Under the pieces are notes generated by a model that was not told the origin of the DNA, searched no databases, and saw nothing but the letters and a program-made list of their open reading frames with translations. This document shows positions 3,680 through 60,812 of a DNA stretch of 64,000 nt, piece by piece; position 1 is the first letter of the stretch, and the number at the start of each line of letters is the position of its first letter. The DNA is taken from the IMG/VR virus record IMGVR_UViG_3300021963_008171, positions 10,995-74,994 of that record. The stretch is one strand, 5' to 3'. The translations under genes were made by a program, and so were the position numbers. The DNA comes from a virus. Taxonomy: Duplodnaviria; Heunggongvirae; Uroviricota; Caudoviricetes.

Positions 3680-3710
3680 GATATATAAACTGAAAAAATC
3701 CTCATTCCGT
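3680..3710 (+). promoter_or_regulatory. leader box copy 1: GATATATAAAC-TGAAAAAATCCTCATTCCGT
   Basis: Near-identical to 11676-11707. It starts a 168-nt untranslated leader ahead of envelope module I. A strong hairpin (3748-3755 pairing with 3783-3790, plus an inner AGGG/CCCT pair) follows. Confidence 0.5.
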
Positions 3711-3791
3711 GAAAAAAGATACGACCTTTTTACACGAAGATAGTTACAGTCTTTCAGGACAGGGAAACACGAAGCCCTATCAGAAAGACTT

Positions 3792-3799
3792 TATATTTG
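3792..3799 (+). promoter_or_regulatory. TATATTTG = Bacteroidetes-type TAnnTTTG -7 box
   Basis: Exact match to the TAnnTTTG consensus, 47 nt upstream of ATG 3847. Confidence 0.4.
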
Positions 3800-3822
3800 T
3801 CCCTCTCCTGGGATAGTGTGGA

Positions 3823-3847
3823 TTTTTTCCAATTTAATTGGAAAAAA
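3823..3847 (+). promoter_or_regulatory. perfect 12-nt inverted repeat abutting the start codon
   Basis: TTTTTTCCAATT (3823-3834), then T, then AATTGGAAAAAA (3836-3847). The last A is the A of ATG 3847. Confidence 0.4.
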
Positions 3848-4353
3848 TGACAAAGACACTTAAAATCCTATTTATAGCAATTTTTGCTATGGCATTTTCC
3901 TTTCAATCTTTCGGACAAGGAAAATCTGTTCTCATAGGGGAAATCACTAACAAAATTCAAATTGGAAATCTAGCAGGATCTAGGCCATTAACTTTTGGCT
4001 TTAGAAATCTATTGGAGGAATACCTTCAAGAAAACGATTTTGACATCGTAGAAGACGAGACTAAATTTGATTACAAGGTCAACATAGATCTTCTTTTCTT
4101 TGATGTTGAGACCACAAAGTCTAGCGTTGCAATATTCCACAAAAACAATGCAGAGACAGTACTAAAAATAAAGGCATATCTTTTAGATAATAAGGGGAAG
4201 AAAATAAAAGAATGTTTAATAACAGAAAAAGCTTCCGAGATTTCAACATCAACTTTAATAGTTGACGAGGGCGGAAAAATGAATCAACAATCGGTTTCTA
4301 CAGTTATTAAAAAGGTGTGCGGAACAGCAATAAAACAATTATTAACACAATGA
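3847..4353 (+). CDS. secreted short CsgG-like protein
   Basis: Signal peptide MTKTLKILFIAIFAMAFSFQSFGQ. The blocks FGFRNLLEEYLQENDFDIVE, DYKVNIDLLFFDVE and VLKIKAYLLDNKGKKIKE align by eye with CsgG-family blocks and with the paralog at 13503. Confidence 0.5.
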   Translation: MTKTLKILFIAIFAMAFSFQSFGQGKSVLIGEITNKIQIGNLAGSRPLTFGFRNLLEEYLQENDFDIVEDETKFDYKVNIDLLFFDVETTKSSVAIFHKNNAETVLKIKAYLLDNKGKKIKECLITEKASEISTSTLIVDEGGKMNQQSVSTVIKKVCGTAIKQLLTQ

Positions 4354-6005
4354 AAAAACTAATTTTATTATCAGTATTTTTTCTCCTGTTTGGATTCTCA
4401 GGATTTGCACAATTGACGATTAGTCAATCCCTAACACCTACCTCGGGTTTAAAGGTTGGTGACACGATTACAGTTAGATATAATTTAACGAAAGGAACAG
4501 TGATTAAGAATCCTCGTTATCTTTGGTTTAGATATCAGTTTAACAACAAAGCTCTGACTTATGTTTCAACTGCTTTCAATCAAGGATCATCTTCTCAAAC
4601 ATTCTATACAGGTTGGAGCAATTATAAGTTTACGCCAAACGGCGGAGCAAGTGACAATGATCTGGATGTCCAGTATGGTTTAACCCCTTGGAACTACGCA
4701 GTTAATTCTGATTGGAATGTTGGTCAATTAGCGGTTCAAAGAGCAGACCAATCTATTAATGGGTTAATCGCAACACAAAAGTACATTTTGAAGGATCAAA
4801 ATACCTACAACAATATCTTTAAAATAGATTTAGCATCAGGTACGGATACAACAGGTGCAAATGTTGGAACTATTTACGGCGGGGGTTGGTCTTCTATATC
4901 CGGTGTAACTGGTAACACTTCACAATTCAAGGTGAAAGTACTATTCCCTCAGGGATATGCAATCTCTGACCATAATGTTCAATTAATGAAATTAAAATCA
5001 GACGGTAGCGGAGATATCGATTGGTCACAACAGCCTATTGCTCAATTACCTCTAGATGCTACTGGAGAGGCTCTTTTCACAACGCAGGTTAAAGTTGGTG
5101 ATAGCGTTGGTGTGTTTGTATCACCAGCATCCCAAAAATCTTGGATGAATAATGTGATCACGGTTTCTGATGCTTATAAGGCATTTTTAGGACACACACA
5201 AACTGATATCGGCGGAACTGCAAACTTTTTCACTTATCCAGTTTTGGAGAAAAAGGTAGGAAATGTTACTAAAAACGATGCAACGTTTAACGAAGCGGAT
5301 TCTTATAATTTATTCGCTTATGTAATGGGACAAGACGTGTCAGCAAACGCATTCATTCCTACAAGCACTGTGACATCTTGGAGATGGTATAGCGGTTTAT
5401 TAAATCAAAGTTGGTTAGACGGAGTTATTAAGAATAGGGTATTAATTGATACACCTATCAAAGAGGTTTATGCTGTATATGCTTGGGGAGGTGATTTAAA
5501 CTGGTCTCACTCATCAGATCCTGCAGTGATTGCAAGTAGAATATCAGCTGGACAGTATACGAATTCTGTAAATTCAATTCAGACAAACTCTGTTAAATCA
5601 ATGAGTAGTGTTTCCATGGCTTACAGAACAGAAGCAGTTGAAACTGCTAAGCTAAGCGTAACATCAACTTTAGAAAATGGCAAGGTTATTTTAACAACAA
5701 CTTTAACTAAAGCAGAACTAGCAGGTTTACAAGTTGTTATGAACTATGACGAAAGCAAATTAACATTGGATAACGTGGTGTTCGATGCAGGTTCTACTAT
5801 AACGAACTTCTCAACCCACGATGGTGGTAGATTAACATTTGGTTCTATAGATCAATTAAAAACAGCAAGAATTAAAACTGGTACACCTTATAAATTAATC
5901 TTCACACCAAAGGTAGCATTATCAAACACTGCGGGATTATTCTACTTTGTACTATCAGACGCAGTTGACGGCAAAGGAAATAAAATCGACCTAATAGTTG
6001 AATAA
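4350..6005 (+). CDS. secreted protein with a C-terminal cohesin-like module
   Basis: ATG 4350 forms an ATGA overlap with the previous stop. Signal peptide MKKLILLSVFFLLFGFSGFAQ. The C-terminus LQVVMNYDESKLTLDNVVFDAGS...YKLIFTPK parallels the C-terminus of the next protein. Confidence 0.65.
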   Translation: MKKLILLSVFFLLFGFSGFAQLTISQSLTPTSGLKVGDTITVRYNLTKGTVIKNPRYLWFRYQFNNKALTYVSTAFNQGSSSQTFYTGWSNYKFTPNGGASDNDLDVQYGLTPWNYAVNSDWNVGQLAVQRADQSINGLIATQKYILKDQNTYNNIFKIDLASGTDTTGANVGTIYGGGWSSISGVTGNTSQFKVKVLFPQGYAISDHNVQLMKLKSDGSGDIDWSQQPIAQLPLDATGEALFTTQVKVGDSVGVFVSPASQKSWMNNVITVSDAYKAFLGHTQTDIGGTANFFTYPVLEKKVGNVTKNDATFNEADSYNLFAYVMGQDVSANAFIPTSTVTSWRWYSGLLNQSWLDGVIKNRVLIDTPIKEVYAVYAWGGDLNWSHSSDPAVIASRISAGQYTNSVNSIQTNSVKSMSSVSMAYRTEAVETAKLSVTSTLENGKVILTTTLTKAELAGLQVVMNYDESKLTLDNVVFDAGSTITNFSTHDGGRLTFGSIDQLKTARIKTGTPYKLIFTPKVALSNTAGLFYFVLSDAVDGKGNKIDLIVE

Positions 6006-6006
6006 T

Positions 6007-8301
6007 ATGAGATTTTTATTATTTATATTATTTTCTCTAATATCATTTTTAGGGTTCGGACAGAGTGTATCTGCTCCGGACTCTAAATCGTTTATACCAT
6101 CCACAACCGGCCAAGATGGGAGTGGATTCCAATTAAGTGGATTTAGTGCAACATCTACTTTATTAGCATCAATCAGTTTAATCAATCCATCAACAAATAC
6201 TACATTTTACCTTAACGATACACGAGGATTAATTGCCGCAAGTGGATTTACTTTAACGGGTAATAAAACTCGTTTAGTGGTATTGGGAACAATGTCAGAT
6301 ATTAATACTGCATTGGTATCTTTAAAAGTTAATACAGGTTCTGTAGTTGGTAATGTTCAATTATCGGTAGCGGCAACTGTAAACCCTGTTGGATTCTTTT
6401 ACAATGGAGTTAATGGACATTTTTACAAACCCATAACCGCAACCAATGAAAGAACTTCATACACACTTGCAAGAAGTAGGTCATTGCTAACTACATTCAA
6501 AGGACAGACAGGCTATTTGGTAACAATAACATCGGCTTCCGAAGATGCATTTATATTCGCAAATGTTCCTGCAACTAATGTATGGTTTGCTGCAACAGAT
6601 GAAATAAAAGATGGAACTTGGGTAATTGATGCTGGTCCTGAAAAAGGTACTGTGATGAAAACCTCAAATGGACAAACTAATGGAAACATTCCTGGCGTAT
6701 ATAACAACTGGGCACAAGGTGAACCAAATGGTAGTAATGGTAGTGAGAACTATGCAGTGGCAAAGTGGAATGGTGCTGCAAATTGGAACGATTTATCAAA
6801 CAATTGGAGTAATCCTTATGTAATTGAATACGGAACTTGGACTAACCCTGATGATGCAACATTTACTGAATTCTATACTAATAGTGTAACTCACTCAAAT
6901 GGGGAAGTATTGAGAGCAGCATTCAATGTTGATTTCGGAACTAATGTAGATGAAACAAAATTTTCAGCAAAAGCAAATACGTATGTAAATAATTTATGGG
7001 GTACAACAACTAACACATCAAGATCAATTAGTGGATTAGGTAAAGTAGATGTTACAAATGATTTGGATACTGTAAAGATTCAAAACGGAGGATACGTGGG
7101 TTCAATAGTAGGAGGGCAGGTAGAATGGTCTTATGTTAATTTTTATAACGGAGCAACCACACTTTACATTGACATGAGAAAGTTTGGTGCGATCGGTGCA
7201 AATTCTGTATCACACATTACACTCTTAGATGTATACAGTGGACCTGTTACCTTTTTAGGAAATGATGCAACCTGGGCAAGATATACGATACCCTCGACCC
7301 TTCCGAAAGTAACAAACGGAACGTCAACAAATTCACAATATATTCGCAACGCTGGATACGGAGATTATGCATTTATGTGTGAGATTTCATTTGAACTTAA
7401 TCGTGAATATAAACAACACGGAATAGAATTATCGTATACTAATCAAACAGATTTGAACACCCTGTATAATAGTATCGTTACTGTATCTGATGTGTTTATA
7501 GCATTTAAAGAATTATCAAATGGCGGGATATTTGGGGATCAAAGCGGATTGGAATTTACCAACGGTATTCAATTTATGAACGCAGATGTGGACGGTAATG
7601 GATTATTCAATGAATCCGACACGTATAAATTATTACAGCACCTAACTGGAGTTCAGCCATTAACACAAAATCCATTATTAACATTCTTGATGAAGCTTTA
7701 TAGCAAATCTGATTATGATGCAATTACAAAATCAAATTGGAACACAAGATTTAATTCTACGAGAAGTCTATTTCCATTTAGTTTAAATACGGGTACCCTT
7801 AATAACACATACAATGTGAACGTAACCTGGATAGGTGACGTAAACCTTTCTCATTCGGCACAACAAACTGCAAGCGGTGTTGCAACCAATTCATATAGAA
7901 GCATGAGCCTAATGACTAATACAACCACTAATGAAATAAATGCATCAATCATGGGTGAAAATGTTGGAGGTAAGGTTATAGTAACGATATCAGTAGACCC
8001 ATTACAGCAAGAATTAGTAGGAACCCAATTCCAGTTGAATTATGATAATACCTCGTTGGAATTTCAAAAAGTAGATTTTATAACAAAAGGTAATCCAACA
8101 AATTTTGGAACAGATAAAGGATCTTATATCACATTGGGATCATTAATCACTGATGGATCAACAATATTAGACAAAACAACAGAATATAAAATAACATTCG
8201 TACCAAAAATTGGATTAACTGGAACATTAGGGTTAACTTCTGTTTCAGCAACAGATGCTGTTAATAAAGCAGGAACTCAATTAAAAGTAAAATTAAACTA
8301 A
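6007..8301 (+). CDS. secreted multidomain protein: C-type lectin, dockerin-like EF-hand repeat and cohesin-like C-terminus
   Basis: Signal peptide MRFLLFILFSLISFLGFGQ. C-type lectin signature GHFY...YLVTITSASEDAFI...WFAATD...WAQGEPNGSNGSENYAV...WNDLS...YVIEYG. Dockerin-like MNADVDGNGLFNESDTYKLLQHLTG. C-terminus FQLNYDNTSLEFQKVDF...YKITFVPK. Confidence 0.75.
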   Translation: MRFLLFILFSLISFLGFGQSVSAPDSKSFIPSTTGQDGSGFQLSGFSATSTLLASISLINPSTNTTFYLNDTRGLIAASGFTLTGNKTRLVVLGTMSDINTALVSLKVNTGSVVGNVQLSVAATVNPVGFFYNGVNGHFYKPITATNERTSYTLARSRSLLTTFKGQTGYLVTITSASEDAFIFANVPATNVWFAATDEIKDGTWVIDAGPEKGTVMKTSNGQTNGNIPGVYNNWAQGEPNGSNGSENYAVAKWNGAANWNDLSNNWSNPYVIEYGTWTNPDDATFTEFYTNSVTHSNGEVLRAAFNVDFGTNVDETKFSAKANTYVNNLWGTTTNTSRSISGLGKVDVTNDLDTVKIQNGGYVGSIVGGQVEWSYVNFYNGATTLYIDMRKFGAIGANSVSHITLLDVYSGPVTFLGNDATWARYTIPSTLPKVTNGTSTNSQYIRNAGYGDYAFMCEISFELNREYKQHGIELSYTNQTDLNTLYNSIVTVSDVFIAFKELSNGGIFGDQSGLEFTNGIQFMNADVDGNGLFNESDTYKLLQHLTGVQPLTQNPLLTFLMKLYSKSDYDAITKSNWNTRFNSTRSLFPFSLNTGTLNNTYNVNVTWIGDVNLSHSAQQTASGVATNSYRSMSLMTNTTTNEINASIMGENVGGKVIVTISVDPLQQELVGTQFQLNYDNTSLEFQKVDFITKGNPTNFGTDKGSYITLGSLITDGSTILDKTTEYKITFVPKIGLTGTLGLTSVSATDAVNKAGTQLKVKLN

Positions 8302-9194
8302 TGAAAAGGATAACAATCATATTAATCTTACTTTTCATAGGGGTTTATTCTAAAGCACAAATTGTAAAACCTGATACGTTACAGCTTTCACCTAAAGAAT
8401 TGTTTGGTGAGAGTGATGATTGGAATGATATAGGTATATTACAATCCTATATTGATTTTTCAAAAGACGTTCTTTCATCCTCAAATCTATCTGTTGGTAT
8501 AATCGGAAAACAGGTGTCAAGTACTTTAAATCTGGGATACAGTAAATGGTCTAATAATGGAGTATGGGGACACTCATTTTCCACATCAATAAATCCGATA
8601 TGGAATTATTATGGTGTTGGTTATGGATTTAGTAGAAATACTGATAAGAGAACAACAACATTACAAACATTCTATTCAACTGATTTTGATTTTCAAAAAG
8701 ATATCAGTATTTCATTTATAGATGTTTTCAGGACAAAAAAGTTTGGGACATTTGGGTATAGCTTAATTGCATCAAAAACATTTTGGGGAACATATGAAGG
8801 AGCATGGGAAGGAAAATACACAGTTGATGCGAATGGTAATTTTTTGGATTTGATTTACCCACAAATGCCGGCATCATCCGAAATGATTTATAAAGGAATG
8901 TTAATGTACACATATACAATCAAAACAAAGAGAGTTAATATATCCCCACAAATATTTGCTATGAGCGACATCTATAAAGATTTTAAGGATGGTACCTCTT
9001 CGGATTTAGCATATCTTGATGATTTCAATTTGGATTTATATTATGGTACATCATTCGATTGGAAAATAACTAAAAGATTTGTTTTAAACACTAATATTAG
9101 ATTCAACAAAACGTGGGATAAATTAAGCGAGTCTGTTGGATATAAAAAAAGTAATCCAATAATGTTTATGATAGGAACAAACTTTCAATTTTAA
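8301..9194 (+). CDS. outer-membrane beta-barrel-like protein (paralogous to the C-terminus of 10224..11669)
   Basis: Signal peptide MKRITIILILLFIGVYSKAQ. Alternating aromatic/Gly-rich strands with a terminal ...MIGTNFQF. Shared blocks: ISPQIFAMS/IAPQVFVTS and GTSFDWKITKRFVLNTNIRFN/GFSYDYKLTGRFGLNLNYRFS. Confidence 0.6.
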   Translation: MKRITIILILLFIGVYSKAQIVKPDTLQLSPKELFGESDDWNDIGILQSYIDFSKDVLSSSNLSVGIIGKQVSSTLNLGYSKWSNNGVWGHSFSTSINPIWNYYGVGYGFSRNTDKRTTTLQTFYSTDFDFQKDISISFIDVFRTKKFGTFGYSLIASKTFWGTYEGAWEGKYTVDANGNFLDLIYPQMPASSEMIYKGMLMYTYTIKTKRVNISPQIFAMSDIYKDFKDGTSSDLAYLDDFNLDLYYGTSFDWKITKRFVLNTNIRFNKTWDKLSESVGYKKSNPIMFMIGTNFQF

Positions 9195-9197
9195 AAG

Positions 9198-9455
9198 ATG
9201 AAAAAAATATTAATTATATCATTTTTATTCTTAACAATATCATCTTGTACTAGTTACAAGATTAGGGTAATACAGTATGATGGAACTGGATATTCGTTGT
9301 ATTTGCCAATGAAAAAACACGGATTGGATAAATGGTACGATGATAACATTGTGTACTATTCTGAAGAGATGGCAAGGTTTAAAATTAAAAAATGGAAGAG
9401 TGAGGAATATCATTCGGATCCGTGGAAAAAACCAAAATACATTAAAATAAATTAA
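9198..9455 (+). CDS. small lipoprotein
   Basis: MKKILIISFLFLTISSC contains a lipobox Cys. 85 codons. Confidence 0.6.
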   Translation: MKKILIISFLFLTISSCTSYKIRVIQYDGTGYSLYLPMKKHGLDKWYDDNIVYYSEEMARFKIKKWKSEEYHSDPWKKPKYIKIN

Positions 9456-9799
9456 TGAAAAAGATATTATTCATATTTCTGATTTTACTGTATGGATGTA
9501 CTAAACCGGAGTTACCAACACCGGCACCGCCAGTCGAAAAAATATTTGATGTTGGGGAGAGTAGTGTTACCAATGGACAATCTTTGTATTTTGATTTACC
9601 ATCACCTGGAGTTTATATTTTATCCTTAATTGATAAAGAGACAAACCAAGTAATAAGCAGAGAAAAATTCGTGGGTCAGATTGGGGAGAATTCAAGAAAG
9701 ATCTATACCAATTCTATAAAATCACAAACGCTATATCTATTGTTGTCAGATTCTTCTAAAAACGAGATGAAAAGAACAACTATATTAATAAGAAAATAA
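9455..9799 (+). CDS. small lipoprotein, beta-sandwich-like (T9SS-CTD-like pattern)
   Basis: MKKILFIFLILLYGC lipobox. The stretch GQSLYFDLPSPGVYILSLIDKETNQVIS...LYLLL resembles the Por-secretion-tail / Ig-like pattern. Confidence 0.55.
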   Translation: MKKILFIFLILLYGCTKPELPTPAPPVEKIFDVGESSVTNGQSLYFDLPSPGVYILSLIDKETNQVISREKFVGQIGENSRKIYTNSIKSQTLYLLLSDSSKNEMKRTTILIRK

Positions 9800-9810
9800 A
9801 ATAAAAAGAA

Positions 9811-10185
9811 ATGAAAAAATCACTAATCTTCTCAATCTGCGTTATTCTATTTGCAGGATGTACAAAAGACGACATGCTAATTCCTATGCAGGAACAAATT
9901 AAACCAGAGCTTGCTATTCAAAACAGCGTGGGTATTAAATTAGAAACCCCATTTGTTTCCAAGGAAGTTTCAATGAACGTAAAATTGGAAAAGGAAGGTA
10001 CTGTAGTTATTAAAATAACTGACATATCAAATAGAGTTGTATCTAAGGAACAGGTTAATGTAAAGGCTGGAGATAATCTATTGAAAGTTTATACCTCTGC
10101 TTTACCATCTTCTTCATATAGAATTGGTATCTACGACTCTAGTAACAATCTTCTAGGAATAACAGACTTTAATAAGATAAACTAA
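9811..10185 (+). CDS. small lipoprotein, beta-sandwich-like (T9SS-CTD-like pattern)
   Basis: MKKSLIFSICVILFAGC lipobox. The stretch VVIKITDISNRVVSKEQVNVKAGDNLLKVYTSALPSSSYRIGIYD matches the xIxIxDxxGRxV...G.N...L..G.Y pattern. Confidence 0.55.
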   Translation: MKKSLIFSICVILFAGCTKDDMLIPMQEQIKPELAIQNSVGIKLETPFVSKEVSMNVKLEKEGTVVIKITDISNRVVSKEQVNVKAGDNLLKVYTSALPSSSYRIGIYDSSNNLLGITDFNKIN

Positions 10186-10223
10186 AAGATTATCTTAAAA
10201 TATTTGAGGCGGAGAAAAATTGA

Positions 10224-11669
10224 ATGAAGAAATTATTATTGTTCCTTTTATTGGTAGTAGCATCCTTTGCTGCTAGTGCACAGACCTTCACCCAGACCTA
10301 TGTGGATAAATGTACTGGGGAGCTCAAAGTTGTGGTGTCTGCTCCTATGCCCAATGGTGGAGTAATGATTTCTTTTTATAATCAAATGAAGATATTCACG
10401 AATGCGCAGGTCAATGACGGAACGGTTCAAAAATGGCTGAATCAAGTTTATACTGATTATAATACAAGACCTTGTCCAGTAAGTACTGTTGCTGTACAAA
10501 CAGTTCAACAAACTGTTGCACAAGCGGCATCAGCTGCTGCATCTGCTGCAGCTTCTTCCGCAGCAAGTAATGCAGCTTCATCTGCAGCTAGTTCTTCGGC
10601 ATCAGCTGCTGCTTCATCGTCTGCAAGTAGCGCTGCAAGTTCTTCTGCATCATCTTCTGCTAGTGCTTCTGCTGGTTCATCCGCGGGTGCTTCTGCTGGT
10701 TCATCAGGAGGTCCTTCTTCTCAAAGCTCAGGCGGATCTTCAGGTTCATCTAGCTCTAACGGGGAAAGTAAAAGTAGTGGATCATCATCAGGAGAATCAA
10801 AATCTGAAAGTAAAGCTGAATCAAAATCTGAAAGTAAATCAGAATCAAAATCCGAAAGTAAAAGTGAGGAGAAGAAAGAGGAAAGCAAATCTGAGAGTAA
10901 AAAAGAGGAGAAGAAAGAGGAGAATAAAAAAGAAGAAGAGAAGAAAAAAGAGGAGGAGAAAAAGAAAGAAGAGGAAAAGAAGAAGAAAGAAGAGGAAAAG
11001 AAGAAGAAACAATCCGTTAGTAATCCCACACTAGTTGCTTCCGATCTTGCAGTAACACAAGGAAATGACGGTAGATATTCTGCTATGATATCAACAGGTA
11101 TAAGCAAATCTTCCATGACGGGAACGGAAAGTTGGGGATTAACATCCATGATATGGACAACATTTGATCAATTTGCTTTGAATGGCGGATACACTAAAAT
11201 GAATTTCGAAAAAGGCAAATTAAAGAACATAGATTCATATTCTATGACATTAGCATACCTTCAGGGAAATATCATGATTATGCAGGGTTATACGCACATT
11301 AAACCGGATCCTAAGATAGGTACTTATGGATTTAACGTAGGAGTTGTTAGCTTATTATTAAAGGATGGAAATAAGTATACCTATTCTGCTTCTTTTTCGT
11401 CCATCGGATTTTGGACAAAGATTTATCAGGTAAATAAAAAAACATCAATAGCTCCTCAGGTTTTCGTAACAAGCTCCCCGATATCATGGAATCCAAACAC
11501 CAATCAAACCTTGGTAAACAGACATTACGGATATATGACAGGGTTTTCGTATGACTACAAATTAACTGGAAGATTCGGGCTTAATCTAAATTATAGATTT
11601 TCTGGATCAACCCAAGCGGGAACACCGATATTGCATAATTTTATGATAGGATCGAGGATTATGCTGTAG
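10224..11669 (+). CDS. secreted protein: N-terminal domain, long Ser/Ala to Ser/Gly to Ser/Glu/Lys to Glu/Lys low-complexity linker, and C-terminal beta-barrel-like domain
   Basis: Signal peptide MKKLLLFLLLVVASFAASAQ. The linker spans roughly 160 residues. The C-terminal ~200 aa are paralogous to 8301..9194 and end ...FMIGSRIML. Confidence 0.65.
   Translation: MKKLLLFLLLVVASFAASAQTFTQTYVDKCTGELKVVVSAPMPNGGVMISFYNQMKIFTNAQVNDGTVQKWLNQVYTDYNTRPCPVSTVAVQTVQQTVAQAASAAASAAASSAASNAASSAASSSASAAASSSASSAASSSASSSASASAGSSAGASAGSSGGPSSQSSGGSSGSSSSNGESKSSGSSSGESKSESKAESKSESKSESKSESKSEEKKEESKSESKKEEKKEENKKEEEKKKEEEKKKEEEKKKKEEEKKKKQSVSNPTLVASDLAVTQGNDGRYSAMISTGISKSSMTGTESWGLTSMIWTTFDQFALNGGYTKMNFEKGKLKNIDSYSMTLAYLQGNIMIMQGYTHIKPDPKIGTYGFNVGVVSLLLKDGNKYTYSASFSSIGFWTKIYQVNKKTSIAPQVFVTSSPISWNPNTNQTLVNRHYGYMTGFSYDYKLTGRFGLNLNYRFSGSTQAGTPILHNFMIGSRIML
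10523..11010 (+). repeat. coding low-complexity tract including a 3 x 24-nt tandem repeat (10794-10865)
   Basis: GAATCAAAATCTGAAAGTAAAGCT, GAATCAAAATCTGAAAGTAAATCA and GAATCAAAATCCGAAAGTAAAAGT encode ESKSESK(A/S). GCN/TCN runs lie upstream and GAA/GAG/AAA/AAG runs downstream. Confidence 0.85.
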
Positions 11670-11675
11670 AAAAAA

Positions 11676-11707
11676 GATATATAAAGTTGAAAAAATCCTC
11701 ATTCCGT
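11676..11707 (+). promoter_or_regulatory. leader box copy 2: GATATATAAAGTTGAAAAAATCCTCATTCCGT
   Basis: Matches 3680-3710 except for one substitution and one inserted T. It begins 7 nt after the stop of 10224..11669 and heads a 168-nt leader before ATG 11844. Confidence 0.5.
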
Positions 11708-11843
11708 TAGCAAGAAATCTACATTTCTTCGTACGTCTTTTCAAAACTAGCTGGCTTATTGCCGGAAACCTGTATGAAAGGCGGGTCTCAACTTTGAGTA
11801 TTTTTTCTAGGTATTAAAAAAAACCGAATATAAAATAAACAAA

Positions 11844-12158
11844 ATGAGCGAAGAAACAGAAAACGACGGAACCTGGTCAGGTTTAAAAAAGACAATCGTA
11901 GGAGTACTTGGTACAGTAGTAACTGCAGGTGGAGTATTTTTAACTACACTATTAGGAGGCGGAGATAAAGACGAAGCCCCAGCACCAGCAGCCCCAGTAA
12001 TTAACATCACAAACTCAAATCAACAGCAACAAGCAGCAGGAAAAACCGTGATTATTCAGGGTGGCAACAATGGCGGAACAGGCAAACCAGCAGCTCCAGC
12101 TCCAGCACCTAAGAAGAAAGAAGGTGATGAGTTTAAAGAGGAAGCACCAAAATGGTAA
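11844..12158 (+). CDS. single-pass membrane protein with Pro/Ala-rich segments
   Basis: TM helix IVGVLGTVVTAGGVFLTTLLGGG, then APAPAAP ... KPAAPAPAPKKK. Confidence 0.55.
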   Translation: MSEETENDGTWSGLKKTIVGVLGTVVTAGGVFLTTLLGGGDKDEAPAPAAPVINITNSNQQQQAAGKTVIIQGGNNGGTGKPAAPAPAPKKKEGDEFKEEAPKW

Positions 12159-12334
12159 ATATGGAACAAGGGCTAAGTTTCATAGCAGTAGTTGCAGTAT
12201 GTTCAATAGCTATGTTTGTATTTAATTCACCAATAATGTTTTTAACATCTTTTATAATTGGATGTAGCTACTTGGTATTAAGAGGGAGAAAAAAGGGGTG
12301 GAGATTACCCAAAGATATAAAAAATACACATTAA
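12152..12334 (+). CDS. small two-helix membrane protein
   Basis: LSFIAVVAVCSIAMFVF and IMFLTSFIIGCSYLVL. The start is either ATG 12152 or ATG 12161. Confidence 0.45.
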   Translation: MVNMEQGLSFIAVVAVCSIAMFVFNSPIMFLTSFIIGCSYLVLRGRKKGWRLPKDIKNTH

Positions 12335-12348
12335 TAGAATAAATTAAA

Positions 12349-12918
12349 ATGGCAGAAAAAAATCAACAACCAAGTGGATTTAAAGACCTATTAAACTCGA
12401 TGATGACCCGCAGATGGTACATCACCGCATTAGTGTTAGGCGGATTTATGCTAATACTAGCAGGAATGTTTGCAGCTATAGGAATAGGAACCAAAATGGC
12501 AGGAGAATGGAAAGAGCTTCTTCTTTTATTATTAGGGGCTTTTATTGGCTCTTATGGTAAGATTATAGACTACTGGTTCTCAGATACCGACAAAGACAAG
12601 ATGCTAGTTCAGAAGATGGACGAAGAAGATGGAACTACTTTATCTCATACTAATGACATGAAGGAAACTAACAAGCCATACGCACCAACTATCCCTGATG
12701 CATTTGTTGCAGGAGCACAAGCTGCTAGAGAATTAGCAGTGGTTGAAAATCAGCAAAATTTTGAATTGGCTAAGGATCAACAAGAGCACGAGCAGGAAAT
12801 GGAAAAGCTTGAATATGAATCTCATAGACAATGCGAGCATGAATGGGGTGATTCCGATAATGATGGAGAACTTGAATGTCAAAAATGCGGATTGTTAAAA
12901 GACAATTTCGAGGGTTAA
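12349..12918 (+). CDS. membrane protein with an acidic/coiled C-terminal domain containing a CxxC pair
   Basis: Two hydrophobic helices (WYITALVLGGFMLILAGMFAAIGIG and LLLLLLGAFIGSYG). The C-terminus reads ...HRQCEHEWGDSDNDGELECQKCG. Confidence 0.55.
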   Translation: MAEKNQQPSGFKDLLNSMMTRRWYITALVLGGFMLILAGMFAAIGIGTKMAGEWKELLLLLLGAFIGSYGKIIDYWFSDTDKDKMLVQKMDEEDGTTLSHTNDMKETNKPYAPTIPDAFVAGAQAARELAVVENQQNFELAKDQQEHEQEMEKLEYESHRQCEHEWGDSDNDGELECQKCGLLKDNFEG

Positions 12919-12942
12919 TCCCAAACAATATAAAATAATAAC

Positions 12943-13197
12943 ATGACTTTTAAAGAATGGATCATAGATCTTTTTAAAGACGAAAGAGGAGCAATTTCAG
13001 TAAAACCTGTGATTGCATTTGTTGGATCATTATTCCTTTGCGGAACGATGTTAGCTAACTCTTTCAGTGAAGAGCATTTTAAACCAGCAGCAGAATTGGT
13101 GAATGCAGTAATGGTAATAACAGCAATCGGTATGGGCGCTGATACATTAGATAAATTCACTAAGAAAGCACCTGCGGACAAGCAAGAAGAAGCTTAA
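12943..13197 (+). CDS. small two-helix membrane protein (holin-like size and topology; unproven)
   Basis: Helices VIAFVGSLFLCGTMLANSF and LVNAVMVITAIGMGA with a charged C-terminus. A hairpin follows at 13204-13225. Confidence 0.5.
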   Translation: MTFKEWIIDLFKDERGAISVKPVIAFVGSLFLCGTMLANSFSEEHFKPAAELVNAVMVITAIGMGADTLDKFTKKAPADKQEEA

Positions 13198-13203
13198 AGT
13201 TGA

Positions 13204-13225
13204 GGAACGGGTTAATCCCCGTTCC
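13204..13225 (+). terminator. terminator-like hairpin
   Basis: GGAACGGG, loop ttaatc, CCCGTTCC: a perfect 8-bp stem 7 nt after the stop. The downstream tract is only weakly T-rich. Confidence 0.4.
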
Positions 13226-13258
13226 CTTCAAATACAAATAAAACACGACTAAACCCCC

Positions 13259-13492
13259 ATGAAAAATCAATTAACAAAAGCAAGTGAATTTCTATTTCAC
13301 GTATACCTAAGACTTTGTCTGTGCTGGGTATTTTTTGCACTAGGAATACAGGTATTCTTTGTGTATTTACAAGTTAGCGATCAACAAGAAAGAATGCGTC
13401 AATATTCAAACGAATTCGAATGGAAATTTGACGGAAGATTTAAAAACAATCCAGAAAACATTATGTACGAAGGACCGACATCTGAAAAATAA
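13259..13492 (+). CDS. small membrane protein
   Basis: Hydrophobic segment FLFHVYLRLCLCWVFFALGIQVFFVYL. 77 codons. Confidence 0.45.
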   Translation: MKNQLTKASEFLFHVYLRLCLCWVFFALGIQVFFVYLQVSDQQERMRQYSNEFEWKFDGRFKNNPENIMYEGPTSEK

Positions 13493-13502
13493 TTAGGAAA
13501 GA

Positions 13503-14240
13503 ATGAAAAAGCAAATATACAACATCTCAATACTGGTCATCGTTTTTATGATTGGTTTTGTTCTGACTACAAAAGCTCAGACTATAGGTAAAACGAAAAC
13601 TGAAGATTTTAAAGCGGACTTCGAAAAGAAGAAGGATATTTCAGCATATCTTGATTACGAGGGTCCAAAGAAAAATATTCAATTGTTAAAGTGCGGAATC
13701 AATGATGAAACGTACGAGGCATATCCAGAATTAAAAGAAAAAAGAGTAGGACTTGGTGTTACTAACATCGTATTAGAATATCTTGATAACCTAAATAGAT
13801 TCGAATTCACTGAGGATAAAACCGAGATTAAAAACAGAATGGTGAAGCAATTCCAAGCATCACAATCTGGAATTTCTGAAAACAAATTAGACGGTAGAGG
13901 AAAGATAAAGCTAGCACACTATTTTGTTGAAATTGAAGTCTATGATTATTCAGTATCTGAAGACGAGTCAATTAGTCTAAAGGATGGCATCAAAGATAAT
14001 CTTGTAACAAGATTGGGTCTTCAGGTTAGATTTACTAATGCAGAGACTGGAGCAATAATAGCAGCATCTGGATTAGGTGAGGCTAAAACAACTAGGGAAT
14101 TAACTCTTGTTGCTGATGCTTCTGTTGACCCTATTAAATTCAATCAATCTACAATTAGTATTTCAACCAAAAAAGCATTGGATATAGCATGTGCAAACAT
14201 TCTAGATAAGATGATTAGAAAGGGAGTATTCCCTCAATAA
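13503..14240 (+). CDS. CsgG-family-like secretion/assembly protein
   Basis: Signal peptide MKKQIYNISILVIVFMIGFVLTTKAQ. The blocks GVTNIVLEYLDNLNRFEFTE, LAHYFVEIEVYDYS and LGLQVRFTNAETGAIIAASGLGEAKT align by eye with E. coli CsgG blocks (ATAMLVTALKDSRWF, ANIMVEGSIIGYES, IAVNLRVVNVSTGEILSSVNTSKT). Confidence 0.65.
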   Translation: MKKQIYNISILVIVFMIGFVLTTKAQTIGKTKTEDFKADFEKKKDISAYLDYEGPKKNIQLLKCGINDETYEAYPELKEKRVGLGVTNIVLEYLDNLNRFEFTEDKTEIKNRMVKQFQASQSGISENKLDGRGKIKLAHYFVEIEVYDYSVSEDESISLKDGIKDNLVTRLGLQVRFTNAETGAIIAASGLGEAKTTRELTLVADASVDPIKFNQSTISISTKKALDIACANILDKMIRKGVFPQ

Positions 14241-14293
14241 ATTTAGGTATAGCTTAAAACACTATGCTTTAGTTACACGACCTAAAGTATAAA

Positions 14294-14941
14294 ATGAACT
14301 TAAAACACGACAATTCCTCACTTAACACCATAGTAGTGGTGTTCTTTCTAGCAATCTCACAACTATTCTACAGCTGTAAGAATAACAGTTCCCCTAGGAA
14401 AGTATCCGATAAAGATAAAGCATCAATAAGTAAAGGATTGTCAGATACAACATTTATTCACGACACCGTGTATGTGGATAATTTAATTCCGTTCGAAGTT
14501 TTAAGGGACACCATAATTTATAGAGATGTCCCGGCTATCGTTGACACTGCTGCGATATTGGGAATGTATAATGTTAAAAAAGTTAAAATCGATACACTCA
14601 AGCTTGATTATGGCTATATCACAGTGGTTGATACTGTTTCTGGAGGTAATATCCTATCTAGAAAATATTTCTCTAAGATTAAGGTACCTGTTAAAGAGAG
14701 GATCGAAAAGATAAAAGAAGAACCTAGGGGTAATCTGTATTTAGGCCTGAATGGGGGTTTAGATAAACCTAACTATGTTTACTCCCTGGGGACTTCTTTT
14801 CTCTATAAAACACCTAAGGATAAAATTTACGAACTTGGTATAGGGGTTTGGAATATGACATCTAATGGAATAGATGGCCAATTCATTCCGTATGTAAAAG
14901 GAGGGGTTTACTGGAAGGTTAACCTCAAAGGGAAGAAATAA
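14294..14941 (+). CDS. lipoprotein with a beta-rich C-terminal domain
   Basis: TIVVVFFLAISQLFYSC lipobox-like signal. The C-terminus is Gly/aromatic-rich (GNLYLGLNGGLDKPNYVYSLGTSFLYK...GGVYWKVNL). Confidence 0.55.
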   Translation: MNLKHDNSSLNTIVVVFFLAISQLFYSCKNNSSPRKVSDKDKASISKGLSDTTFIHDTVYVDNLIPFEVLRDTIIYRDVPAIVDTAAILGMYNVKKVKIDTLKLDYGYITVVDTVSGGNILSRKYFSKIKVPVKERIEKIKEEPRGNLYLGLNGGLDKPNYVYSLGTSFLYKTPKDKIYELGIGVWNMTSNGIDGQFIPYVKGGVYWKVNLKGKK

Positions 14942-26844: not shown

Positions 26845-28470
26845 ATGAGCAAGTTATCAGAGTACGCGGTTAAGTCCAAAACAGAAATTAGAAAATACGA
26901 GGATCTAGTTGTTGAGAATTTTATGGGGGGTAATTCCTATAAATTGTCACCGCTACAAACACTTAAAATAGTAGCTGCTAGCTCGATCTTCGGGGAGCCA
27001 CAGTACTATAGAGATGGGATAAAGAAGCAGGCTTCGATAAAGAACCATGATACCCTATTGAAATACTCAATATTTGCTGGCCTTATAGAAGGCTGTACCT
27101 CCGCAGCGGACGTTTTTACGAACGCTATTGATGCAGCCTTAGATTATGACTTCAAGGGAACTTTAGACTTAGCTACGGAGCTAAGAATGGTGTTTTTTAT
27201 GAGATTAAACCCAGCCGTCATATTTATACGTGCTTCTATCCATCCAAAAAGAGCAGAATTCAATGGATCCAACCCAGGATACATGAAAACTGTGGGCAAA
27301 TCCATAGCACTTAGACCCGATGATTTAACAAATCAGCTTGAATATTTCATGTACGTGAACAAGACAAAAAGCAAATTAAGCTCCATTGTTAAAAGAACCT
27401 GGGCAGAAAGACTTGGAGAGTATTCAAGATATCAACTAAACAAATACAAAGGCAAAAGTCTAATTGATCTTGTTAGAATTTCACACGCTTGGAATAATGA
27501 TATAGATGAGCTAATGAAGACCGGATCTATCAAGGTTGAAGAATCTGAAAGAACATGGGAAAATTTAAGGTCGGAGGGCAAGACATGGAAGGAGATTCTA
27601 GAAGCAATCGAAATCCCTCACATGGCTCTTTTGAGAAATCTGAGGGGAATCTTCAAAGAAATAGAGGATTTGGAGATTGCTAAATCCGTCATGACAAAAT
27701 TATCGGCTGGTGTTACTAAGGGAAATCAATTTCCATTTAGATATTGGTCTGCATATAAAGCGGTAGAGAAAGAAGAAATAAATCATAAAGGAGTCATTCT
27801 TGATGGATTAGAGGAGTGCATGGACATTTCAGTACTGAATATGCCAAAGCTTGATGGAAAAACTATATGTCTTTCCGATAATTCAGGATCTGCCTGGGGT
27901 CAGTTATCATCAGAATATGGAACGGTTTATGCAGCAGAGATAGCAAATCTTTCTTCACTGATTACTGGAAAACAATCCGACGAAGGCGAAATAGGTTTAT
28001 TCGGAGATCGCCTTATTGTAGAGTCAGTTTCTAAAAGAAATGGACTTCTATCTCAGTTAAAAGCTATCAATGAGGTGGAGAGAGATCATGGTAAATTGGG
28101 GGGAGGCACAGAGAATGGGATTTGGTTGTTCTTCGATGATGCAATCAAGAGTAAAAAACATTACGATAACATTTTTATCTATTCTGATATGCAAGCTGGA
28201 CATGGTGGGTTATATGGAACAGATTCTTCAGAATATAAAGATTTCTTACATGGAGATTGGAGGCATATAGATGTTCTAGCTCTTGTTTCTAAATATAGGA
28301 AAGACGTGAATCCCAAGGTGAATCTATTTTCCGTTCAAGTTGCTGGATATGACAATACAGTATTGCCGGAGAATCTTTATAGGGGAGCTATTTTAGCAGG
28401 ATGGACGGGTAAAGAGCCAGTTTTTGCTAAGGCGTTAATCGACACCTGGAACGAAATAGAAAATCGATAA
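26845..28470 (+). CDS. rsr: Ro60-like TROVE-domain protein with a C-terminal vWA domain
   Basis: By-eye matches to human Ro60: NKYKGKSLIDLVRISHAWN vs YKQRNGWSHKDLLRLSH; IPHMALLRNLRGI vs MPLTALLRNLGKM; NQFPFRY vs RIHPFHI. The vWA MIDAS-like motif is ICLSDNSGSAWG. Confidence 0.85.
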   Translation: MSKLSEYAVKSKTEIRKYEDLVVENFMGGNSYKLSPLQTLKIVAASSIFGEPQYYRDGIKKQASIKNHDTLLKYSIFAGLIEGCTSAADVFTNAIDAALDYDFKGTLDLATELRMVFFMRLNPAVIFIRASIHPKRAEFNGSNPGYMKTVGKSIALRPDDLTNQLEYFMYVNKTKSKLSSIVKRTWAERLGEYSRYQLNKYKGKSLIDLVRISHAWNNDIDELMKTGSIKVEESERTWENLRSEGKTWKEILEAIEIPHMALLRNLRGIFKEIEDLEIAKSVMTKLSAGVTKGNQFPFRYWSAYKAVEKEEINHKGVILDGLEECMDISVLNMPKLDGKTICLSDNSGSAWGQLSSEYGTVYAAEIANLSSLITGKQSDEGEIGLFGDRLIVESVSKRNGLLSQLKAINEVERDHGKLGGGTENGIWLFFDDAIKSKKHYDNIFIYSDMQAGHGGLYGTDSSEYKDFLHGDWRHIDVLALVSKYRKDVNPKVNLFSVQVAGYDNTVLPENLYRGAILAGWTGKEPVFAKALIDTWNEIENR

Positions 28471-42918: not shown

Positions 42919-42933
42919 GGACATTTTTTGGGC

Positions 42934-42944
42934 GATATATAAAA
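42934..42944 (+). promoter_or_regulatory. GATATATAAAA motif
   Basis: Ends 1 nt before ATG 42946. Confidence 0.35.
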
Positions 42945-42945
42945 T

Positions 42946-48076: not shown

Positions 48077-48077
48077 T

Positions 48078-50421: not shown

Positions 50422-50429
50422 AGTCTAAA

Positions 50430-60725: not shown

Positions 60726-60737
60726 CAAATTTTATAT

Positions 60738-60812
<75 letters not shown>

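Follow-up and report, generated by a model that had tools for sequence, protein, structure and literature searches.

Gene order and expression signals

Eight plus-strand open reading frames (ORFs), g1 to g8, lie tightly packed between positions 3847 and 11669 of the window, the 64,000-nucleotide stretch of phage DNA analyzed here. The intergenic gaps from g1 to g8 are, in order, −4, +1, −1, +3, −1, +11, and +38 nt. A sequence-only reading of this DNA had described eight consecutive genes separated by −4 to +38 nt, each beginning with a Sec or lipoprotein signal, and had taken them for an envelope-dedicated module carried by a mobile element. This observation was confirmed: every ORF was found where the reading had placed it, each product starts with a hydrophobic signal, and the element is a jumbo phage. 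The interpretation built on it was partly supported.

By heuristic signal-peptide calls, the predicted signal-peptidase I site of g1, g2, g3, g4, and g8 consists of a small residue and then Gln, whereas g5, g6, and g7 carry a lipobox Cys. Gln followed the predicted site in every scorable ortholog of g2 (91/91), g3 (89/89), g4 (55/55), g8 (57/57), and the downstream gene g14 (80/80). Gln after the signal-peptidase I site is the Q-rule of Bacteroidetes (PMC5837995), and the surface-export signal of Bacteroidota lipoproteins is C-X-K-(D/E)2-X (PMC5080379). The Q-rule sites, the export signal of g7, and a g3 head 47 to 51% identical to Bacteroidota/Sphingobacteriaceae MAG adhesins all point to Bacteroidota as the predicted host of this widespread, uncultivated lineage of freshwater jumbo phages.

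A promoter-like element of 31 nt, GATATATAAA-N-TGAAAAAATCCTCATTCCGT, occupies positions 3680 to 3710 on the plus strand and heads the ~157-nt leader of g1. The rest of that leader (3711 to 3846, plus strand) is structured, and a terminator scan placed in it, at 3797 to 3816, a hairpin that resembles a terminator and has a T-run. The RNA of 3680 to 3846 folds with a z-score of −4.2, and an Rfam search of the g1 leader gave no match. A second copy of the element (11676 to 11707, plus strand) heads the ~158-nt leader of g9; the eight-gene unit ends here on its 3′ side. The window holds exactly these two copies, which align with each other; two copies arose in 0 of 100 shuffles, and both are kept as a pair in six relatives with this gene order. 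The GATATATAAA core also lies 10 to 25 nt 5′ of other ORF starts.

The conserved unit runs on past g8, to about position 14941. This syntenic continuation (g9 to g15, 11844 to 14941, plus strand) was recognized from g9, g11, and g14, which accompany the block in more than 130 loci. Genes g9 to g13 encode small membrane proteins and g15 a lipoprotein, and the g13 motif is fused with or adjoins g1 in relatives. The product of g14 (13503 to 14240) is a highly conserved exported orphan whose relatives are 70 to 96% identical (dN/dS, 0.09); its 6112 database relatives are unannotated.

Among the eight genes, synteny held for g1-g2-g3-g4-g6-g7, which are colinear in 37 of the 38 distinct related loci whose flanks were long enough, but not for g5, which is sporadic (10 of 157 loci), or for g8, which in relatives typically lies several kilobases downstream, beyond g9 to g14. 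The order g3-g4-g6-g7-g9-g10-g11 was retained even where barrel identity was just 37%. Every gene of the block had a dN/dS ratio of 0.09 to 0.26, with dS near saturation, and purifying selection maintains the block in jumbo phages known from over 100 uncultivated contigs, the longest of 335 kb. Relatives of g4 occurred on more than 97 IMG/VR contigs and relatives of g3 on more than 139, again up to 335 kb in size; g4 was not found among 185,579 species genomes. The block is far beyond chance, and it is old and phage-restricted, not the recent host-derived insertion that the sequence-only reading had named as an alternative. No description of the gene set was found in the family libraries and literature searched; the set is undescribed, as had been surmised, and its building blocks are known.

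Products of the block

In most cases, the Pfam matches reported here were obtained with orthologs instead of the proteins of the window itself, and many of them lie under the curated cut-offs. Both AlphaFold2 models were of moderate confidence only (pLDDT, 65 to 68).

Gene g1 (3847 to 4353, plus strand) encodes an exported alpha/beta protein of 168 aa. It had been called CsgG-like, which holds at the level of the fold only. Its sequence is closest to YajG and TraT and gave no signal when tested for CsgG family membership; in structure comparison, the fold proved common equally to PelC, LptE, TraT, FlgT, and PqiC, which match as well as or better than CsgG. We assign g1 as a YajG/TraT-like member of the CsgG/PelC/LptE/TraT fold. 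It has no lipid-anchor Cys or lipobox, its inserts at the two CsgG hairpin positions are just ~15 to 16 aa long, and many of its relatives have an N-terminal membrane anchor in place of a cleavable signal. On these grounds, a CsgG-type channel role for g1 is not supported. Members of its fold with solved structures assemble into rings at the envelope. TraT is a lipoprotein that forms rings and acts in surface exclusion (PMC11733297); g1 differs from it in having neither a lipid anchor nor transmembrane helices. The missing lipidation, the N-terminal anchors of many orthologs, and the lack of sequence membership also separate g1 from the PelC-PelB, LptE-LptD, and CsgG systems, whose polysaccharide or curli partners are not present (no curli-type partners were found in the window), and a 12-strand barrel is too small for an LptE-like plug.

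The next two genes encode secreted paralogs. A common C terminus had been noted for them, and the paralogy proved wider than that: residues 21 to 551 of g2 (4350 to 6005, plus strand; 551 aa) align to residues 118 to 764 of g3 (6007 to 8301, plus strand; 764 aa) with an hhalign probability of 100% over 495 columns, g2 being without the lectin domain. The modular g3 starts with an N-terminal domain and continues through a C-type lectin domain, a middle region that varies, and a dockerin-like segment to a cohesin domain, in keeping with the lectin, cohesin, and dockerin character proposed for these proteins. In the lectin domain (aa 138 to 272; 6418 to 6822), with its EPN (6721 to 6729) and WND (6784 to 6792) motifs, residues E239, P240, N241, W260, N261, and D262 do not vary among 46 orthologs, and the lectin profile matched the PDB entry CEL-I (E = 5.5e-5) and over 60 further C-type lectin domains. 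Across the alignment of 46 g3 orthologs, Pfam returned Lectin_C for 40, Cohesin for 24, and Dockerin_1 for 15. The Dockerin_1 matches, under the Pfam cut-off, fell at the dockerin-like segment (aa 491 to 551; 7477 to 7659), where the canonical Ca-loop DVDGNGLFNESD at 7585 to 7620 is the sole match to its pattern over all six frames of the window. Cohesin matches (residues 647 to 733; best score, 24.9 bits; cut-off, 24.1 bits) lay in the C-terminal cohesin domain of g3 (aa 647 to 764; 7945 to 8298), and the corresponding g2 domain (~aa 432 to 551; 5643 to 6002) was matched in 17 of 46 g2 orthologs (best E = 3.6e-6).

Family signals at fixed positions, a canonical Ca-loop, and secretion are features that g2 and g3 share with cohesin-dockerin assemblies, both cellulosomes and noncellulosomal modules. 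Unlike those assemblies, the predicted modules of g2 and g3 are phage encoded and have a C-type lectin partner instead of glycoside hydrolases and one clear dockerin repeat only. The lectin-containing head of g3 matches Bacteroidota T9SS type-B adhesins in their N-terminal part. These cellular relatives are type-B cargo (CHU_C, E = 1.8e-24), and each is directly followed by an ORF of 296 to 299 aa; the one scanned, in L159, encodes a PorP/SprF barrel (E = 3.8e-33).

A barrel fold was predicted for g4 (8301 to 9194, plus strand), a 297-aa outer-membrane protein with ~12 strands that ends in NFQF, its last residue thus being aromatic, as in other outer-membrane barrels. The 481-aa product of g8 (10224 to 11669, plus strand) has a signal peptide, a Cys-pair N-domain (aa 20 to 85; 10281 to 10478; C30 and C84 conserved), a low-complexity linker (aa 86 to 265; 10479 to 11018) that is Ala/Ser/Gly-rich and then Glu/Lys-rich, and a barrel (aa 266 to 481; 11019 to 11666). 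The proposed paralogy of the two barrels was borne out, residues 54 to 297 of g4 aligning with residues 266 to 481 of g8, over the whole barrel (hhalign probability, 97.7%; E = 2e-12; 207 columns). So was a long low-complexity stretch in g8, the 181-aa linker, whose median length over orthologs is 165 aa. With a 66-aa domain followed by ~180 aa of low complexity, the putative passenger is unlike those of type Va autotransporters and FapF-type 12-strand translocators, and the barrels gave no Autotransporter or FapF family signal. The g8 gene is adjacent to a g4-like gene in one relative (L168) and overlaps one in another (L172). From the g4 model and its alignment with g8, the two appear to be a phage-specific orphan pair of paralogous ~12-strand outer-membrane barrels, their genes linked across distant lineages.

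The three small lipoproteins had been described together. All have lipoboxes, and g6 and g7 are paralogous (hhalign probability, 99.2%), but g5 (9198 to 9455, plus strand; 85 aa), which has no surface-export signal, resembles them in the signal peptide only (hhalign). Gene g6 (9455 to 9799, plus strand) encodes 114 aa with a DUF3244/T9SS-CTD-like beta-sandwich; the 124-aa g7 (9811 to 10185, plus strand) reads C-T-K-D-D from its lipid-anchor Cys, a surface-export signal. A pooled scan of g6 and g7 orthologs gave matches to DUF3244 (33/70) and weak ones to Por_Secre_tail (29/70), consistent with both being small Ig-like lipoproteins. A lipobox was present in 75 of 89 g6 orthologs, 2 of those 75 having the full export signal, which occurred in 37 of 83 lipobox-bearing g7 orthologs.

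Possible roles at the host surface

The periplasm or outer-membrane targeting of all eight products suggests that the surface of the Bacteroidota cell is rebuilt by the phage during infection. We tentatively prefer to read the block as a conserved accessory operon for a phage-built, glycan-binding surface complex that serves adhesion and/or exclusion and has no CsgG-type channel, a function that we infer from the sequences. The operon would be transcribed after infection from its own promoter-like element, and host Sec, Lol, and BAM would bring its products into the periplasm and the outer membrane. There, the two barrels and the lipoproteins would form an outer-membrane platform, with g8 holding a small disulfide-bonded domain on its ~180-residue spacer, and the g3 dockerin would bind the cohesin of g2 and/or another g3, so that a complex bearing lectins is assembled. 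Overall, the infected cell would gain a glycan-binding layer specified by the phage. If so, this layer would alter what the cell adheres to and what gains access to its surface, with adhesion or aggregation, the exclusion of additional phages, or both as the outcome.

Some observations count against such a surface complex. Within the block, conservation is highest in g4 (dN/dS, 0.10) and much lower in its supposed partners, an unusual pattern for an arms-race surface protein. In one related lineage, L164, g4 also occurs with the other module genes not nearby, so the barrel may function autonomously. No route over the outer membrane was recognized for g2 and g3, which may therefore stay confined to the periplasm.

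It is also conceivable, though unlikely, that g2 and g3 are phage cargo passing through the host type IX translocon. Here g4 (with g8) would be a private shuttle or anchor barrel, a functional analogue of PorP/SprF, the cohesin-like sandwich would be a noncanonical sorting or anchoring domain, and the CTD-like folds of g6 and g7 would engage or modulate the machinery. The predicted hosts belong to the phylum possessing T9SS, and PorP-like barrels anchor adjacent type-B cargo (PMC9143113). Moreover, g3 followed by g4 repeats the order and size of the cellular pairs, in which a large adhesin precedes an outer-membrane barrel of ~300 aa (SprB-SprF, PG1035-PorP), the N-terminal region and lectin of g3 are homologous to bona fide cargo next to PorP/SprF, and the Por_Secre_tail matches tie g6 and g7 weakly to the T9SS type-A CTD. 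However, homology of g4 and g8 to PorP/SprF was undetectable: their orthologs had no PorP/SprF match in Pfam at E ≤ 1, and hhalign against an 11-sequence PorP/SprF profile gave 0.7% and 1.8%, compared with 97.7% for the g4-g8 positive control run identically. The g4 model looks 12-stranded rather than 14-stranded, the C termini of g2 and g3 matched Cohesin and never CHU_C or Por_Secre_tail in the Pfam scan of orthologs, and g4 stands alone in L164.

That lone occurrence, the strong conservation of g4, as expected for transport, and the wealth of sugar-modifying enzymes in the window would fit g4 and g8 as substrate-specific 12-strand porins (KdgM/NanC/Tsx type), with lectins and lipoproteins concentrating glycans for a nutrient boost, much like an auxiliary metabolic module. 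We consider this improbable: the porin matches, at 5 to 13% identity, reflect generic 12-strand geometry, g4 has no Pfam porin signal, no uptake components of the periplasm or inner membrane were recognized in linkage with them, and the cohesin/dockerin modules and long g8 spacer are left without a reason. A lysis or egress module, in which the lipoproteins, the small membrane proteins g9 to g13, and the barrels destabilize or bridge the envelope late, as spanin-like proteins or outer-membrane disruptors, seems quite improbable. Small lipoprotein genes do directly precede a single-pass membrane protein gene (g7 then g9 in most relatives), more small membrane proteins follow downstream, and one g6/g7 ortholog weakly matches the T7 o-spanin model. 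Yet that match is single (E = 0.08), the periplasmic part of g9 is low-complexity and not coiled-coil, endolysin and holin families were not detected in the block, and we know of no precedent in lysis cassettes for lectin/cohesin proteins and conserved barrels. Given the features of g1 set out above, it is very improbable that g1 is a CsgG-type secretion channel forming with the barrels a complete apparatus that exports and displays g2 and g3, as the sequence-only reading had it. Ordinary virion structural genes, or a recent functionless host-derived insertion, are an explanation already largely refuted. Part of g3 has cellular relatives, and the GC content of the block dips slightly, to 0.30 at 8 to 10 kb; however, the export signals on all products are incompatible with cytoplasmic virion assembly, a PHROG search of the block gave no structural matches, and the purifying selection and phage restriction described above argue the same way.

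Of known phage and plasmid proteins, the outer-membrane "moron" proteins (lambda Lom and Bor, T5 Llp, and F-plasmid TraT) are single genes with proteobacterial hosts. The present block differs from them in being an eight-gene operon, larger still with its downstream continuation, in its orphan barrel pair and lectin/cohesin/dockerin proteins, and in its predicted host phylum, Bacteroidota.

Layout, boundaries and lineage of the gene block

Eight plus-strand genes, g1 to g8, lie at 3847-11669, where the sequence-only reading had placed them, and they are as tightly packed as it had claimed, with spacers of −4, +1, −1, +3, −1, +11 and +38 nt. A hydrophobic signal is predicted to open all eight products, again as that reading had it. 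At the predicted signal peptidase I sites of g1 (3847-4353), g2 (4350-6005), g3 (6007-8301), g4 (8301-9194) and g8 (10224-11669), a small residue is followed by Gln. The products of g5 (9198-9455), g6 (9455-9799) and g7 (9811-10185) carry a lipobox Cys, which bears out the proposal of three lipoproteins.

The window has exactly two copies of a 31-nt element, GATATATAAA-N-TGAAAAAATCCTCATTCCGT. The copy at 3680 lies about 158 nt 5′ of the start codon of g1, and the copy at 11676 about 158 nt 5′ of that of the downstream gene g9. Two matches to this element were found in 0 of 100 shuffles, and the same pair is present in six relatives that have the window's gene order. The leader of g1 (3680-3846) is strongly structured (z = −4.2) and is closed by a terminator-like hairpin. 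Since the element pair brackets the block and is accompanied by this hairpin, the eight genes are, judged from their sequence, a single bounded unit in this sub-clade.

The core of the element, GATATATAAA, is also found 10 to 25 nt 5′ of ORF starts at 28512, 30824 and 42946, so the simplest reading is a candidate phage promoter; the core resembles the T4 late TATAAATA box. Exact copies recur at 138, 1329 (minus strand), 28500, 29442, 30800 and 42934, several of them 10 to 25 nt before ORF starts, and when up to one mismatch is allowed, there are 31 sites in the window against 19 ± 4 expected. The two leaders (3680-3846 and 11676-11843) are paralogous, about 158 nt long with the first 31 nt in common, and in both a short hairpin and T-run come at the end, 25 to 30 nt ahead of the start codon. 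The leaders may act as attenuators, or may be small RNAs with a common 5′ seed; no Rfam family matches either one.

A megablast search of GenBank phages returned no nucleotide-level match to the block, no deposited phage resembles the window in nucleotide sequence, tblastn of g4 against the same phages returned none either, and single-sequence scans of g1 to g8, g14 and g15 against Pfam, PHROGs and NCBIfam gave nothing significant. Relatives of g4 were found on more than 97 IMG/VR contigs, at 77 to 90% identity, and relatives of g3 on more than 139. These contigs reach 335 kb, which, together with the gene content of the window, marks this as an uncultivated jumbo phage lineage. The order g1-g2-g3-g4-g6-g7 is colinear within 9 kb in 37 of the 38 distinct related loci with enough flank; g5 occurs sporadically, and g8 is usually found several kilobases downstream, after g9 to g14. 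Purifying selection acts on all genes: their median dN/dS values are 0.09 to 0.26, approximate figures because dS is near saturation, and the lowest are those of g14 (0.09) and g4 (0.10).

A recent host-derived insertion, which the sequence-only reading had raised against its own proposal, is refuted because no g4 relative was found in the cellular genomes of 185,579 species and the g4 family is tiny, with only 27 clusters among 1.84 billion representatives. The block is a bounded, conserved, phage-restricted operon, and all of its products are predicted to be routed to the envelope of a Bacteroidota cell. Alongside this conservation, the notion that it comprises ordinary virion genes or a functionless insertion is scarcely credible. 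No description of the gene set as a whole was found in the literature searched, in line with the earlier remark that it was not recognized as a described system. The set is undescribed, but its parts belong to known kinds. In the "moraphage" paper (PMC12619734), envelope genes are not mentioned, and no link between it and the present lineage was found.

A Gln follows the predicted cleavage site in every scorable orthologue of g2 (91/91), g3 (89/89), g4 (55/55), g8 (57/57) and g14 (80/80). Exposure of an N-terminal Gln in most signal peptidase I substrates, the Q-rule, is Bacteroidetes specific (PMC5837995). From its lipid-anchor Cys, g7 reads C-T-K-D-D-M, which fits C-X-K-(D/E)2-X, the optimal signal for surface export of lipoproteins in Bacteroidota (PMC5080379); the signal is present in 37 of the 83 lipobox-bearing g7 orthologues and almost never in g6. 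From the Q-rule, the g7 export signal and the homology of g3 to cellular adhesins, we infer that the host is a member of the Bacteroidota. A 3.4-kb contig in a Lake Mendota Schleiferiaceae MAG (L158; JBIPMA010000251.1) carries relatives of g2 (79% identity) and g3 (69%). This phage-like contig is probably DNA of a phage that was binned together with its host, and it gives a weak hint that Schleiferiaceae is the host family.

g1, g14 and the lipoproteins

The sequence-only reading had called g1 CsgG-like and the block what looks like a complete outer-membrane export and display apparatus. What stands of the likeness is the predicted alpha/beta core fold, as in CsgG (PF03783). The family match does not: neither Pfam nor NCBIfam gave a CsgG hit to g1 at an E value of ≤1, none of its 46 orthologues had one, and a g1 profile run against PDB sequences, CsgG included, did not find CsgG. 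An hhalign comparison with an approximate E. coli CsgG sequence, a weak template, gave 0.2%. The g1 signal peptide also lacks the Cys of a lipobox, and many orthologues have a transmembrane anchor and a DGTFKNSPENIWY motif instead. In CsgG, two long amphipathic hairpin inserts build the transmembrane barrel. The inserts of g1 at the equivalent positions (residues 87-102 and 131-145) are only 15 to 16 aa long; they are its most conserved segments and have low pLDDT. With neither a family match nor a lipobox in g1, the claim of a complete CsgG-type apparatus is not supported, and despite the common core fold, any such apparatus built on g1 is very improbable.

The predicted fold of g1 is that of YajG and TraT. 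Although the window's g1 itself matches neither family, 31 of its 46 orthologues match YajG (PF03923; best, 2e-6) and 10 of the 46 match TraT (PF05818), and distant relatives are precomputed as PF03923 or carry the name YajG. Both YajG and TraT are lipid-anchored outer-membrane proteins, TraT being a decameric ring, whereas g1 has no lipid anchor site; nor does the 168-aa g1 have room for the three transmembrane helices of TraT (PMC11733297). A separate small ORF before g14, g13 (13259-13492), has a transmembrane segment and the motif FDGRFKNNPENIMY. In many relatives a g13-like segment is fused or adjacent to the N terminus of the g1 domain (for example, at L140:8568-9200 in a related locus), and in this sub-clade a cleavable signal has therefore taken the place of the anchor.

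Downstream of the block, g14 (13503-14240) encodes an exported 245-aa protein with 70 to 96% identity across the lineage. By eye it looks CsgG-like, but no method applied, including a profile search of PDB sequences, detects CsgG. None of its 6112 database relatives has a Pfam domain or a name, and g1 and g14 have no detectable relation (26.8%).

The lipoproteins g6 and g7 are paralogues (aligned at 99.2%), and g5 resembles them in its signal peptide alone. Among 70 pooled g6 and g7 orthologues, 33 matched DUF3244 and 29 matched Por_Secre_tail (PF18962/TIGR04183; best, 3.4e-4), all below cut-offs. The matching domain, a small Ig-like sandwich, makes up the whole mature lipoprotein and is not the tail of a cargo protein, so its position is not the one by which T9SS type A is recognized.

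Lectin, cohesin and dockerin matches and the paired barrels

Many of the family assignments made here are subthreshold matches that are consistent across orthologues. The sequence-only reading had seen a common C terminus in g2 and g3, and the relation extends well beyond it, with residues 21-551 of g2 aligning to residues 118-764 of g3 at 100% probability. Residues 138-272 of g3 match C-type lectin domains in the PDB when a 46-orthologue profile is used (CEL-I, E = 5.5e-5, and more than 60 others). Lectin_C (PF00059) was found in 40 of the 46 g3 orthologues, at about residues 163-272 and in several cases above the cut-off; the EPN and WND motifs are invariant in all 46, and the canonical disulfide Cys residues are absent from the sequence of the domain.

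Cohesin (PF00963) matches were obtained for 24 of 46 g3 orthologues, at about residues 647-733 (best E = 9e-6), and for 17 of 46 g2 orthologues, also C-terminally (best E = 3.6e-6). One orthologue exceeded the cut-off (24.9 versus 24.1), the window's own g2 and g3 have no Cohesin match in Pfam, and the g3 profile found no cohesin among PDB sequences. Dockerin_1 (PF00404) matched 15 of 46 g3 orthologues at about residues 491-551, always below the cut-off. This segment has a degenerate first repeat and one canonical Ca loop, the only canonical dockerin Ca loop in the six frames of the window. Since cohesin matches occur in both proteins and the lone dockerin loop is in g3, it is natural to suppose that the g3 dockerin may contact the cohesin of g2 or of another g3 molecule.

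The g4 model, which like the g1 model is of moderate confidence (pLDDT 67.9, pTM 0.62), has an all-beta fold of about 12 long strands. Its best matches are the 12-strand outer-membrane barrels KdgM (16.5), NalP (16.3), NanC (15.8) and FapF (14.8), with PorV (12.5) and FadL (12.3) scoring lower. Together with a signal peptide and a C-terminal aromatic residue, this fold prediction fits the beta-barrel of the outer membrane that was proposed for g4 earlier. The proposed paralogy of the two barrels also held, in that residues 54-297 of g4 align with residues 266-481 of g8 over 207 columns (97.7%, E = 2e-12; hhalign with distant relatives included). One related locus (L168) has a short g8-type barrel (97.2%) directly after a g4-like gene, and in another (L172) the g8 orthologue overlaps the start of a g4-like gene; by alignment and gene order, the two barrels have an evolutionary link. 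In a related lineage (contig L164) the barrel is on its own, surrounded by genes whose products are cytoplasmic.

No named barrel family in Pfam, NCBIfam or PHROG matched g4, its distant relatives or the g8 orthologues, and for the last of these Pfam gave low-complexity artefacts only, such as CDC27. Scans of IMG/VR with two distant barrels (P0183 and P0197) were empty. Proteins of this kind have a precedent in the annotated phage outer-membrane barrels of BFVD, although none of those comes near g4 (TM ≤0.5). Besides its barrel, g8 has an N-terminal domain that is conserved and contains a Cys pair, and also a low-complexity linker, with a median length of 165 aa among orthologues, that passes from Ala/Ser/Gly rich to Glu/Lys rich. 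In the window (10479-11018) the linker consists of an Ala/Ser run, a Ser/Gly run, (ESK)n and (EEKK)n, the last with a 28-residue pure Glu/Lys run, and this order is conserved across orthologues. We take its Glu/Lys part to resemble single-alpha-helix spacers. The N-terminal part of g8 may be either a surface "passenger" or a periplasmic tether. With 12-strand barrels as the best structural matches on one side and the long linker of g8 on the other, we consider it distinctly unlikely that g4 and g8 serve as a solute channel.

Relation to type IX cargo and a possible surface complex

In a genome scan, residues 11-297 of g3 matched part of two adhesins from Bacteroidota and Sphingobacteriaceae MAGs, with 51% identity to the first (1952 aa) and 47% to the second (1921 aa). 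The first has a CHU_C type-B T9SS sorting domain (1.8e-24) in addition to cadherin, Ig, laminin-G and Lectin_C domains, and a 299-aa PorP/SprF barrel (3.8e-33) follows it; the second is followed by a 296-aa ORF. PorP-like barrels anchor neighbouring type-B cargo (PMC9143113), and the arrangement of adhesin and following gene matches g3 and g4 in order and sizes. One contig with a g3-related adhesin (L159; JBANFS010000001.1) is a genuine 304-kb Bacteroidota contig.

These pairs suggest a reading in which the phage supplies adhesin-like cargo and its own partner barrels to exploit the type IX secretion/gliding apparatus of the host. The cargo would be g2 and g3, with a lectin head derived from host T9SS adhesins and a cohesin sandwich in place of the sorting domain, and the role of partner barrels would fall to g4 and g8, accompanied by the CTD-like lipoproteins g6 and g7. 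The head of g3 is indeed homologous to type-B cargo that precedes PorP/SprF, but g4 and g8 give no PorP/SprF signal. Pfam scans that included their orthologues found no PF11751 match, and hhalign gave 0.4% with a single sequence; with a PorP/SprF profile of 11 sequences it gave 0.7% and 1.8%, while g4 against g8 as positive control gave 97.7%. The PDB has no PorP/SprF entry by sequence. Barrels of the PorP/SprF family are of the 14-strand FadL-like kind, and the g4 model looks 12-stranded. Homology of g4 and g8 to PorP/SprF is rejected at the sequence level, and no CHU_C match was found in g2 or g3 orthologues. The resemblance is therefore positional and partial, and we regard such a hijacking of type IX secretion as unlikely. 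If true, it would be without precedent both as a phage-encoded T9SS cargo/shuttle system and as a phage-installed cohesin-dockerin scaffold on a host surface.

The predicted products of the operon are a pair of orphan barrels, two proteins of the lectin/cohesin(/dockerin) kind, a YajG/TraT-fold protein and Ig-like lipoproteins. We tentatively favor the possibility that these products assemble into a glycan-binding surface complex, which would alter adhesion and/or access to the infected cell. A lysis or egress module is highly unlikely beside the lectin and cohesin matches.

To our knowledge, most known examples of phage genes that change the outer membrane of the host are single "moron" genes of enterobacterial phages. 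Here a whole operon for eight proteins predicted to be envelope targeted is conserved under purifying selection in an abundant freshwater jumbo phage lineage; its orphan barrel pair is found almost nowhere else, and its lectin/cohesin/dockerin proteins are related to host gliding/adhesion proteins. If the products decorate the infected cell, large phages would reprogram the adhesion, aggregation or phage susceptibility of Bacteroidota, a major group of aquatic particle-degrading bacteria.

Elsewhere in the window, a dense cluster at 41695-55234 encodes three radical-SAM proteins, two NAD-dependent sugar epimerases and two eukaryote-type GT7 galactosyltransferase-like proteins; one epimerase is fused to a 2OG-Fe(II) oxygenase, and one of the GT7 proteins carries a laminin-G/ConA domain. 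The predicted content of the cluster suggests glycan synthesis or modification by the phage. A 541-aa protein with a TROVE (Ro60-like) domain is encoded at 26845-28470. A phage-encoded tmRNA lies at 60314-60728 (plus strand; RF00023, 80 bits, E = 1e-29), and a tRNA-Met comes directly after it at 60738-60812 (plus strand). The Gly-rich, collagen-like coding region at 62900-63850, where GC content rises to 0.46, resembles the ORF that comes first on the distant phage contig L164.
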